DNA of 64,000 nt from Eledone cirrhosa (Eukaryota), in the NCBI GenBank assembly GCA_964016885.1, contig OZ024759.1:6882001-6946000 (forward strand), in the 5' to 3' direction. Under the pieces are notes generated by a model. It was not told where the DNA came from and did not search any database. It saw only the letters and a program-made list of their open reading frames with translations. Position numbers and translations under genes: made by a program. Shown in pieces: positions 148-59,920 of this stretch; within the stretch, counting starts at the first letter, position 1; every line of letters begins with the position of its first letter.

Positions 148-450
148 AGGAAAGTATATACTTTCAGACGTTCAATCATCTGGCAGGAAGGTATACGATG
201 CTGACGATAGCTAATAAGCTTGAAACTAGTACATCGTTCCTTTGTCACTGTTGTTTGTTTACAAACAAACCGAACATTATAATAAATGTTCGGTAAACCG
301 ATACGTACATATATATATGTGTACATGTATGTATATATATACATACTACTGTACGTCTGTATACATATATGTATGTACGTATACATACTTATATTTAAGT
401 AACAGTCGTACTAAGAGTGAGAAATGAAATTTCGTTTCATTTTTTCTATT
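148..450 (+). mobile_element. Partial copy of the 432-bp non-coding HHR-bearing (retrozyme-like) family
   Basis: Same sequence as 46435-46790 (aaagtatatactttcagacg...gaaatgaaatttcgtttcatt) with an internal deletion; flanked by (TA)n. Confidence 0.8.
196..236 (+). ncRNA. Minimal type-I hammerhead ribozyme
   Basis: cgatg-CTGACGA-t-agct(aata)agct-t-GAAA-ctag-TA-catcg: stem I cgatg/catcg, 4-bp stem II, palindromic stem III. Confidence 0.9.
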
Positions 451-613
451 TATATATATTATCTCTATATATTTATATTATAAATATATACATATATATT
501 ATATATGTTATATATATATATTATGTATATTATATATATGACTTCCCAGGGAATATTCAACTGATAAGGTATGATTATCCTTGGCTATGTCAAAATTTAT
601 AAAACACACTTTG

Positions 614-676
614 TATTTTATCTGATGAAAGCGTACCAAAGTTTTTTGGTACCCTTGAAATATATATAATAGAATA
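614..676 (+). ncRNA. Type-I hammerhead ribozyme (family shared with 38521 and 48339/48557)
   Basis: tattttat-CTGATGA-aagcgtaccaaa(gttt)tttggtaccctt-GAAA-tatata-TA-atagaata. Confidence 0.8.
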
Positions 677-1041
677 AATATGGTTTTATAAATATAGTTT
701 CCATTTATTTAATATCATTGTATATATATTATATATATTATATATATATTTATATATATTTATATATATATATATATATATATATATATATATATATATA
801 TATATATATATATATAGAGAGAGAGAGAGAGAGAGAGAGAGAGAGAGAGAGAGAGAGAGAGAGAGAGAGAGAGAGGGGGGGGGGAAATATACACGGGTGT
901 GTATGATTGTGTATAGAAGATTATATTAATAAGAGGAATTCCAACTTTGTCTGATTTACTCGTTTTATTTACAATCCTTTAAAATTTATAATGGTATTAT
1001 AATGAAATAGTATGATAGAATATTAAATGTTAAGTGTTAAT

Positions 1042-1080
1042 TGAACAAGTACTTTCATGCTTTCGCAATCTTCAGGTTCA
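1042..1080 (-). ncRNA. Minimal hammerhead ribozyme (left arm)
   Basis: Exact reverse complement of 1165-1203. Confidence 0.88.
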
Positions 1081-1164
1081 TAATGTGTGGTGACAGTCAA
1101 GTTTGCAATTTTCAACTGTGAAATGACAGTTGAAAATTGCAAACTTGACTGTCACCACACATTA

Positions 1165-1203
1165 TGAACCTGAAGATTGCGAAAGCATGAAAGTACTTGT
1201 TCA
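1165..1203 (+). ncRNA. Minimal hammerhead ribozyme (right arm)
   Basis: tgaac-CTGAAGA-t-tgc(gaaa)gca-t-GAAA-gtac-TT-gttca. Confidence 0.88.
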
Positions 1204-1441
1204 ATTAACACTTAACATTTAATATTTTATCATACTATTTCATTATAATACCATTATAAATTTTAAAGGATCGTAAATAAAACGAGTAAATCAGACAAAG
1301 TTGGAATTCCTCTTATTAATATATATATATATATATATATATATATATATATATATATATATATATATATATATATATATATATATATATATATATTATA
1401 TATATATTATATATGTTATATATATATTTATATATATATAT

Positions 1442-57745: not shown

Positions 57746-57849
57746 TCGATTGCATAAACAAACAGACATTTTCGTTTTTATATATAAATATTATTTTTTT
57801 TTTTTATTTTATTGGCAATATTATATCGTGAGGCCCGCGTTGCCCAATA

Positions 57850-58025
57850 ATGGTTTCTGACTTGGGGAGGGGAAAGTTGATTAGATCTATCCCAGTGCGT
57901 TACTGGTACTTTATTTTATCAACCCCTTAAGGGTGAAAGGCAAAGCTAACCTCAGAGGGACTTGAACTCAGACAGTAAAGGGTCGTAACTCTATGCCACA
58001 AAGCATGTTGTCCGAAGCTACTGAC
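57850..58025 (-). mobile_element. Meta-like SINE, diverged
   Basis: ctggtactttattttatcaacccc...gaaaggcaaag...ttgaactcag. Confidence 0.7.
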
Positions 58026-58467
58026 ATGTATATATGTGCGTGTAAATATATATATATCGGCAGTATTGTGACACAGCAATACACACACACACACACACAC
58101 ATAAGGTAGAGAGAAATAACAACACAATCGGTAGAGTATATGGAAGGAATATATTAGGTTAACGCTTGAAACAGCAGGAAGAGGGTCTTAACATTTTGGA
58201 CACTAGTCTTTAACACACACCACCTTCAGCCCTCCCCGCTCGGACACCCCGTCTCCCTCTCCCCACTCCACCCAACACCACCCCTACACACCCCACACCC
58301 TTCCACCACCTGTTTACCCCCCTTTTAATTTCAGTTTATTTTGATCATGCCTTTATTTTTAAATTTATCTTTATTTTTTATTTTTTCATTCGCACCGTTT
58401 CCTTTCGCTATATGTCTCTCCACCACTCCCCTACACACCCTTTGAACTCTGTTCCCACACACTTCTC

Positions 58468-58499
58468 ACCTGAGGAAGGGCTTATGCCCGAAACGTCGT
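58468..58499 (+). ncRNA. Minimal hammerhead ribozyme candidate
   Basis: ac-CTGAGGA-a-gggc(ttat)gccc-GAAA-cg-TC-gt; stem I only 2 bp; downstream 58500-58590 recurs inverted at 60018-60104. Confidence 0.6.
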
Positions 58500-58959
58500 C
58501 CCCCACCTACACCCCACTCTCCAGAGCGTGAAATTAATAAACATTTGTTGTACTGCCTCTCTGTTTTGTCCCTGTTCAAATTTTTCCATTATATATATAT
58601 ATATATATCATAAATCATGTCTTTAGAATCATCAGATAAAATATATACTATTTCTTCTTCTAATTAGCATAATTAACAATATAAAAAATCAATTAGATCA
58701 AGCTATAAGAAGAAAGGCTCTTATAGAGAAATCTCCGACAAATAACCGAACGTAGCCTCTTCGCGGCGGCCCCAATCGAGTATTTATCCAACATTTCGAC
58801 AGCATGTAGAAACTGACTAAATATATCATCAACCATACACAATTAGGTGTAAAATTAAACTTAGAAGAAATGCGTACATACCGTATATCTATAACTTTAT
58901 GTATATGTTAACCTTTATATATATATAACGGCGATGAATTAGTTTTGCGAGGTTTTTGA

Positions 58960-59510
58960 TATGAAATCGTGTATCGAAACAAATGTTGTTATACTTGGGG
59001 AGGGTCATATTTGTGTAATATTGCCAGAATTAATAACAGAACACACTCACTGTTTGGTTGGTTTTCGCTTCTGTGTCTTTTATATCGGTTAATTTAATTT
59101 ATTCGATCCTCAATGTTACCATTGACTGACCAACGGTCAAAAATACAGATACAATATAGACACAAACACATAGTCTATCAAAGTTCTTTCGTTGCACATC
59201 TGCAATAAACAGACTAAATAAAGATGGCGTAGGCATACAATGCAACGGGAGGAAACATAATAACACCAGTGATGATGTTGCAGATGTGCAACGAAAGAAC
59301 TTTGTTAGACTATATATATGTGTTTGTGTCTATATTGTATCTGTATTATTTTTGACCGTTGGTCAGTCAATGGTAACATTGAGGACCGAATAAATTAAAT
59401 TAACTGATATAAAAGACACAGAAGCGAAAACCAACCAAACAGTGAGTGTGTTCTGTTATTAATTCTGGCAATATTACACAAATATGACCCTCCCCAAGTA
59501 TAACAATATA
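58960..59510. repeat. Fold-back of a diverged relative of the 8885/20643 PLE 3' end
   Basis: 58985-59204 mirrors 59278-59507; degenerate HHR GTGATGA-t-gttgca(gatg)tgcaac-GAAA-gaac-TT at 59269-59302. Confidence 0.85.
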
Positions 59511-59576
59511 TATATATATATATATATATATATATATATATATATATATATATATATATATATATATGAGAGAGAG

Positions 59577-59920
59577 AGAATGCGAGGTAGTTTCAGATTT
59601 ATTGATAGGGCTCTGATACATATTTCAATGGTGACAGAGGCCACGCGGTGCCGCCTAACCATTGCCATGATCTCATCAGATAGCTCTATTACGTTCTCGA
59701 GGCAAGGGAACGGGCGAAGGCTTCAAAAACATCATCTTTGTCAGCTCCCTTGTCGTTATAATTTGGATTACCTTGAGAACGTAAACATGTTATGTAACAG
59801 AGCTGTCTGGTGTCATGGCACTGGTTAGGTGGAATCAAGTGGCCACTGTCATCATTGAAATATGTATCACAGCCCTATCAATAAAGGACTTTAACGTCTG
59901 AAACTACTTCGCATTTTCTT
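59577..59920. repeat. Imperfect fold-back with an HHR in the left arm
   Basis: 59600-59690 mirrors 59800-59885. Confidence 0.78.
59610..59684 (-). ncRNA. Hammerhead ribozyme with long stem II
   Basis: Reverse complement: gctat-CTGATGA-gatcatggca...tgtcaccatt-GAAA-tatgta-TC-agagc; the mirror copy has the better stem I gctgt/acagc but a broken core. Confidence 0.65.

Follow-up and report, generated by a model that had tools for sequence, protein, structure and literature searches.

Type I hammerhead motifs in Penelope-like and retrozyme repeats of the octopod Eledone cirrhosa, with a putative U6-like promoter in one subgroup

A 64,000-nt stretch of the Eledone cirrhosa genome (assembly GCA_964016885.1, contig OZ024759.1, positions 6,882,001 to 6,946,000, forward strand), hereafter the window, is rich in hammerhead ribozyme motifs. 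These motifs are genuine, and very probably they are type I hammerheads lying in dispersed repeats, several of which are the 3′ ends of Penelope-like elements (PLEs) or tandem retrozymes; there they would likely serve the copying of the elements, with most copies likely silent. The kind of motif is a known one and the scale is unusual. In addition, one subgroup of the retrozymes carries what looks like the promoter of the host U6 small RNA. Repeat families are designated F1 to F12 and genomic loci sampled for comparison by L numbers; other coordinates are those of the window (Table 1).

The initial annotation had listed 24 canonical motifs from more than 10 families, each with a closing stem I. 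All 24 sites adjoin one of the 49 CTGANGA words of the window (35% GC), and all of them, together with an additional motif at 26519+, have the core CUGANGA, GAAA, and UH in type I order, with 13 motifs on the plus and 12 on the minus strand. A type I scanner for which both stems I and II were obligatory found 20 motifs—19 of the listed sites plus 26519+—far more than the shuffled control for which the annotation had called: dinucleotide shuffles, 60 global and 60 local, gave a mean of 0.05 (maximum 1). A stricter first version of the scanner gave 7 matches, and the relaxed version was used for counts. Among the five listed sites failing the scanner, 1075− and 1170+ are good motifs, with stems I and II predicted to fold (P 0.92), and 59679− is a weak motif with a mismatched stem I; stem II has decayed at 35699+, whose family is intact at locus L090, and stem I is just 2 bp at 58470+, as it is in all eight other genomic copies fetched. 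Stems I and II close the core adequately in 21 of the 24 and are weak or missing at 58470, 35699, and 59679. The closing stem I listed for 58470+ is thus absent.

The word canonical is too strong. The first stem II pair, G10.1-C11.1 in the test of type I hammerhead membership, is G-C in only eight of the 24 sites (a count tolerating an additional base following A9), U.U in 10, A-U in three, G-U in two, and C.A in one, and no Rfam family matches the window at its gathering score. With an E-value cut-off, the best 150 of 232 Rfam matches included AT-rich microRNA models and no hammerhead; a different hammerhead family elsewhere in the genome passes RF00163. Covariation was found in stem I by a search imposing no stem I rule, to avoid circularity: 2.86 of 4 positions are Watson-Crick pairs over 42 distinct combinations (some of them chance matches), compared with 1.15 when partners were permuted (0/5000). 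The stem II covariation proposed between 15326 and 39954 is a real change, U-A/C-G between 15331 and 40003 (alignment columns 21–37), but a single one, and the two-sided change count was reached by 38/500 shuffles with an alignment whose three F4 rows lower the totals. About 11 repeat families were found, in agreement with the estimate of more than 10, and stem III is, as had been noted, mostly a short palindrome, loop III being palindromic in most families. The cores are all present, but they are not 24 separate events: because 13 of the motifs sit in six composite insertions, the 24 reduce to 17 insertions.

The link to PLEs, here of the EN+ type, which had been proposed earlier, is supported by the elements themselves. 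F4 makes up the 3′ terminus of a 4.08-kb element with one frame containing a reverse transcriptase (RT) plus, at its C terminus, a GIY-YIG domain; at L062, two such tandem 4.08-kb units and an inverted truncated copy each end in an F4 hammerhead. Pfam RVT_1 matches the frame weakly (E 0.005), tblastn ties it to Pfam-positive PLE frames, and 13 of 30 sampled F4 copies follow this frame within ~330 nt. By tblastn, furthermore, F2b, a family with a TAT(A/G)TA loop, lies 1.3–1.8 kb after another PLE frame at four loci (selected as long inverted pairs), and two of five sampled F3 copies lie 374–395 nt after a GIY-YIG frame. The search revealed no hammerhead downstream of the PLE frames at 12–14 kb, 29–30 kb, 32.6 kb, and 42.7 kb of the window. 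In the near full-length PLE at 11500–14390, the endonuclease is preceded by a long additional stretch; no hammerhead was detected downstream of this PLE, nor downstream of a related fragment at 42657–43355. Another PLE fragment (28570–31129; RT and GIY-YIG at 28778–29958), with no hammerhead found after its frame, is bordered on both sides by a small element, repetitive in itself, in the form of a perfect inverted repeat of 288 nt, and a near-perfect palindrome without a hammerhead (31180–31470, ~140 nt per arm) is possibly the inverted end of another element.

F1 is a non-LTR (long terminal repeat) retrozyme, that is, a non-coding tandem unit of 420–470 bp with one hammerhead each. F1 is present as 432-bp units in the window and as five units in L095, and L024 has 14 related units; the predicted F1 circle is strongly self-paired (z −6.9). 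Eleven direct and three inverted 470-bp units, 14 in all, make up the L024 array (L024:1354-7856, ~80 kb right of the window); their stem II starts with a G-C pair, and the 12-mer described below stands at −101. In contigs of three other sequencing runs, F1 was found as 4–12 pieces at low depth, not taken as presence in other species.

The insertions bear the marks of PLE integration: tandem and inverted arrangements, 5′ truncation, one-sided tails, and microsatellite targets. Six of the 17 are back-to-back inverted pairs, one of them also with a tandem. Each tested family has two discrete 3′ ends (F1 +255/+307, F4 +196/+256, F2b +106/+207), spaced 52–101 nt apart, and nearly all window copies reach (AT)n within 60–270 nt. 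Inversion, a one-sided tail of 30–40 bp, and a microsatellite bias have been described for PLEs (10.1101/2021.04.23.441226); the inversions, tails, and microsatellite flanks of the motifs match these. A similar TTTCCAT-containing 3′ stretch stands just before (AT)n in F1, F2, F12, and the 58470 family, and may be a common recognition signal for the PLE protein.

Conservation of the core was compared in six families, with 76 copies from unbiased loci and the L024 array excluded. The core is intact in 63 of the 76, and the 11 catalytic core positions are invariant across the lineages of all six families, with the stems turning over. Variants common to at least three copies occur in 0/66 core columns vs 70/712 others (p 0.003), while copy-specific changes, at 9/836 (1.1%) in the core and 148/7679 (1.9%) outside it, do not differ significantly (p 0.10); selection therefore acts on the transposing element lineages. 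No sign of host protection or breakage of inserted cores was seen in the 76 copies, a sample in which power is low.

In F1, an octamer-containing 12-mer lies 89 nt upstream of the core, followed by a TATA-like element 42 nt past the start of the 12-mer; at three independent U6 loci, the 12-mer stands at −77 to −79 and the TATA at about −31. Three U2 loci lack the exact octamer in their upstream DNA. The 12-mer was found 25 times in 654 kb of unbiased DNA vs 0.3 in shuffles; 20 of the 25 stand upstream of hammerheads that the scanner detected, with 12 of the 20 in one array. F1, F1b, and F12 have both elements, and among sampled families the 12-mer is confined to these three, which have further sequence in common and may be of one origin. 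A general comparison of the best 20-mers between small nuclear RNA (snRNA) and retrozyme upstream DNA gave 15–17 vs control maxima of 15–16, barely above shuffles; the argument for a promoter is founded on the fixed 12-mer and where it stands. Two observations speak against a promoter: the spacing is not the same, being 42–43 nt in retrozymes vs 46–48 nt in U6 (4–6 nt shorter), and a T6 run at +294 of F1 would end polymerase III transcription short of the next unit. The stretch from the predicted start to +290 of F1 has no T4 run, a lack that is not significant (33–40% of shuffles), and polymerase III termination is not claimed. U6 forms a tandem array with a ~1.8-kb unit at G000:C19:31.78-31.84 Mb, and U2 one with a ~2.2-kb unit at C3:307.35-307.45 Mb; the U2 upstream regions have a TATA-like stretch near −30.

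Patterns for single families were counted in the whole genome (2,995,841,428 bases) with no check of stem I. The TAT(A/G)TA-loop group gave 80,439 matches vs 163 for a reversed control, and the 12-mer plus core 27,602 vs 1; the F9 and F4 patterns gave 10,296 and 8,904, and the 27-mer of the 58470 family has 1,496 exact copies. The total of 128,737, or at least ~129,000 matches, treats the patterns as non-overlapping and excludes an exact F1 count of 10,046, which overlaps that of the 12-mer plus core. By sampling, 29 scanner motifs in 39 10-kb stretches (390 kb; blind-picked, not strictly random) correspond to ~220,000 per genome (bootstrap 123,000–338,000). The strand counts of the F9 pattern are uneven (6,426 vs 3,870), a hint of a large tandem array at some place in the genome, and many F9 pairs join 5–15 nt from the core. 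The small genome of Schistosoma holds tens of thousands of hammerheads, which might equal the density here, and therefore no density record is claimed.

The closest known counterparts are the minimal hammerheads of PLE pseudo-LTRs (Cervera and De la Pena, 2014, PMC4209133), which likewise have type I topology, a long stem II, a short stem I, palindromic loop III positions, and, in some families, an extra base after A9, and which occur mostly as lone truncated copies and in opposite-strand pairs. They differ in number—4,000 minimal motifs in coelacanth and 9,000 in Xenopus vs at least ~129,000 matches here—and in that G10.1-C11.1 is present in only a third of the window sites (8/24) and most families have a 4–6-nt palindromic loop. 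Metazoan non-LTR retrozymes (Cervera and De la Pena, 2020, PMC7229834; Li et al., 2026, preprint) are also non-coding tandem units of 420–470 bp with one type I hammerhead each, a self-paired predicted circle, and co-occurring PLEs; the U.U pair with which stem II begins at some sites here is also that of axolotl HHR_Amex2, which is reported active (PMC7229834). F1 differs from them in showing PLE tails and inversions directly and in its upstream U6-like elements, and the parts covered of these two texts include no cephalopod. Published hammerhead counts reach ~5,000 for mussel and 126,247 for axolotl (PMC7229834); the axolotl number is similar to that found here, whereas the Eledone genome is about a tenth of the 28.21 Gb of axolotl (10.64898/2026.07.22.740005). 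Newt satellite 2 (PMC2220036), likewise a tandem hammerhead repeat, is driven by an internal snRNA-type promoter and so offers a precedent, although that promoter is described as one for polymerase II and the putative promoter here matches U6 upstream elements. The amniote intronic hammerheads (RECK and others; PMC6155905) are also type I and thought to derive from retroelements, but are single, conserved, and intronic, whereas those of Eledone are high-copy, with no sign of host selection. A literature search whose coverage left out most subscription papers and the supplements turned up no account of hammerheads in cephalopods or of retrozymes with a U6-like promoter, and the words "hammerhead" and "ribozyme" are absent from the main text, as far as covered, of a 2026 Octopus repeat annotation (PMC13282606).

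The arrangement of the copies bears on their activity. Same-family neighbours are divergent in 21 cases and convergent in two, with 42 of 114 motifs in divergent pairs; opposite-strand pairs 100–700 bp apart have been seen before (PMC4209133). Whichever side transcription of a divergent pair comes from, it passes the antisense arm first and the ribozyme second, so that paired copies would be locked in hairpins. Indeed, five compact pairs are predicted to form hairpins of −150 to −516 kcal/mol, and with 300 nt of upstream sequence the predicted probability of both stems is 0.00 for 11 paired motifs; for nine of these alone, stem II is predicted at 0.89–1.00, and the F9 pair misfolds even alone. 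In addition, the short palindromic stem III is of the type needing a second copy: hammerheads with a palindromic loop III are dimer-dependent (PMC4209133; PMC6765202), those of PLEs act weakly and as dimers (PMC4209133), and an Anolis PLE hammerhead showed no cleavage without PLE protein (PMC11167929). From these models, a transcript crossing the window would probably be cut little, and the best candidates for real activity would be the tandem F1 pair and the motifs whose stem III is stable, namely 26519+ and lone F9 copies elsewhere.

The following course is proposed. The PLE protein would nick (AT)n DNA and start reverse transcription ~100–260 nt 3′ of the ribozyme, so that even heavily 5′-truncated copies would retain it; a second, inverted copy would often be placed beside the first, doubling the motif count. 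In tandem transcripts, two hammerheads would pair via the palindromic loop III and release unit-length RNA that may circularise, with F1-type retrozymes supplying a U6-like promoter of their own for transcription. Lone copies in read-through RNA would cleave poorly, and paired copies would remain locked in long hairpins. Several points weigh against this account. The hammerhead is not the predicted minimum-energy fold of several isolated motifs, and the folding predictions are equilibrium rather than kinetic ones; in none of the families tested are the 5′ ends of copies concentrated at the cleavage site; F5, F8, F9, 17783, 26519, 58470, and 59679 were tied to no parent frame, the few upstream PLE matches being inconsistent; and only one of nine Xenopus retrozyme dimers cleaved in vitro (10.64898/2026.07.22.740005).

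One of these points would suit a reading in which the core serves the PLE protein as a signal in folded RNA, with self-cleavage mattering little or not at all in the cell. Insertion in vitro was unaffected by catalytic mutants of the Anolis PLE, and its cleavage site had no RNA reads ending there (PMC11167929), much as 5′ ends fail to gather at cleavage sites in this genome; the first stem II pair is, moreover, weak in 16 of the 24 sites. Against it, catalysis would lead one to expect just what six families show, all 11 catalytic positions staying invariant as the stems change. H17 is also never G among 93 scanner matches, but this was imposed by the scanner. We regard this alternative as unlikely, though it deserves some weight. 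The initial annotation had inferred that a transcript crossing the window would meet many potential self-cleavage sites, which is not supported; that a host transcript crosses the window and is cut at many of them, affecting splicing or termination, we consider improbable. Some retrozyme monomers are fast (~0.8 per min in coral), and a U.U-based axolotl variant was 22% cleaved in 1 h as a monomer (both PMC7229834); F9 and 26519+, with at least 4 pairs in stem III, could act alone; most sampled copies keep an intact core; and some copies do sit at genes, as at L094:7988-8539, where a short-chain dehydrogenase exon is flanked by hammerheads at 901+, 1721+, 3764−, and 8633−, one of them antisense just past the exon. 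Yet no host exon was detected in the window by a search blind to short exons and untranslated introns, the nearest host frames are ~38 kb to the left and ~97 kb to the right, any one transcript carries one strand, stem III is of the dimer type, 11 motifs are predicted to be sequestered, and copies show no excess of core-breaking changes.

That the locus is a special host-selected ribozyme cluster is very improbable. Its density is ~4 times the sampled mean (20 in 64 kb vs 29 in 390 kb), and the genome-wide pattern occurs six times in it vs 1.7 expected. The flanks are similar, however, with 44 motifs in 200 kb (14 in one array), ~78% of the window is repeat even against a limited sample, the families tested have thousands of copies elsewhere, and the strands are balanced. 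Chance matches in AT-rich, microsatellite-rich DNA, finally, have next to no probability left: the TATATA of loop III does resemble the microsatellite background, and CTGANGA words are plentiful, but this idea is refuted by the shuffled and reversed controls and by covariation of stem I across families.

Table 1. Features of the 64-kb window
Feature	Position	Strand	Remarks
F1 (retrozyme family) hammerhead	195..237	+	single truncated copy in (AT)n
F2a hammerhead	614..676	+	long stem II, TATATA loop III
F3 back-to-back inverted pair	922..1323		cores 1075− and 1170+
F1 back-to-back inverted pair	5408..6084		cores 5654− and 5836+
F4 back-to-back inverted pair (arms)	8883..9300		cores 9075− and 9108+
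F5 hammerhead	15326..15381	+	stem II variant with U-A
Rare-family hammerhead	17709..17788	−	long stem II; prediction does not favour hammerhead fold
F4 hammerhead	20791..20833	−	in 3′ untranslated end of 5′-truncated PLE
GIY-YIG end of F4 PLE frame	21035..21442	−	96% identity to residues 596–731 of L062 frame
Additional hammerhead, not on earlier list	26513..26597	+	6-bp stem I, stable stem III
Decayed copy, stem II lost	35694..35775	+	family forms ~560–570-bp tandems in L090
F8 hammerhead	38521..38587	−	TATGTA loop III
F5 hammerhead	39954..40008	−	stem II variant with C-G
F4 hammerhead	44835..44879	−	last 20 codons of PLE frame at 45121–45180
F9 back-to-back inverted pair	45380..45615		cores 45439− and 45556+
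F1 retrozyme insertion	45631..47172		inverted copy (core 45936−, 52-nt tail) plus 2.5 tandem 432-bp units
Cores of tandem F1 units	46485 and 46917	+	inside the 45631..47172 insertion
12-mer common to U6 upstream regions of the genome	46396..46407	+	also 46828–46839+ and 46014–46025−
TATA-like element	46438..46445	+	42 nt past 12-mer start; also 46870–46877
F2a back-to-back inverted pair	48270..48672		cores 48396− and 48565+
Minimal hammerhead	58468..58497	+	core, stem II, ACGU palindrome, 2-bp stem I
Weak hammerhead	59610..59684	−	stems I and II mismatched

No second copy of the 26519+ hammerhead was found among the genomic loci sampled. With respect to host genes, 225 candidate frames were found in unique DNA of the window and of 200 kb of its flanks, and 150 of them were searched against Pfam; the matches were to RT, endonuclease, a long interspersed nuclear element (LINE)-associated domain of unknown function, and a G protein-coupled receptor (GPCR), with one sub-cut-off match inside a LINE fragment. 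This search, which is blind to short exons and untranslated introns, found no host exon in the window. The nearest host frame on the left is a single-exon GPCR, whose best named match is an Octopus protein (74%), and that on the right is a multicopper-oxidase-like first exon, assigned by reading the sequence. The window also contains a near full-length LINE with endonuclease and RT (1557–4576, minus strand), Tc1/mariner-like transposase fragments at 33468–34498 and 41715–42221 (both plus strand; Pfam DDE_3 on the latter), and minisatellites at 49211–53505 (57 bp ×75), 53912–54894 (32 bp ×31), and 56708–57377 (75 bp ×9).

Since hammerheads of PLEs and retrozymes are already known, the window itself is ordinary repeat-rich DNA; the value of the finding appears to lie in its scale and testability, with one new feature, the putative U6-like promoter. 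A larger picture is tentatively put forward as a possibility short of an even prospect: octopod retrozymes may have captured a host U6 promoter and thereby become tens of thousands of self-contained units that start at the hammerhead base and yield self-cut circular RNA, and together with the PLE ends they may make up one of the densest ribozyme loads among animals, rendered harmless by the hairpin-forming geometry of insertion. If this is true, the long double-stranded hairpins would also be substrates for cephalopod RNA editing. With more than 100,000 motifs on both strands, a direct test of host RNA cutting in the cell is possible; if such cutting occurs, sense copies would be depleted in introns, back-to-back pairs excepted. 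Overall, the F1 insertions show the marks of PLE insertion directly on a retrozyme, and may point to how a metazoan retrozyme is transcribed.

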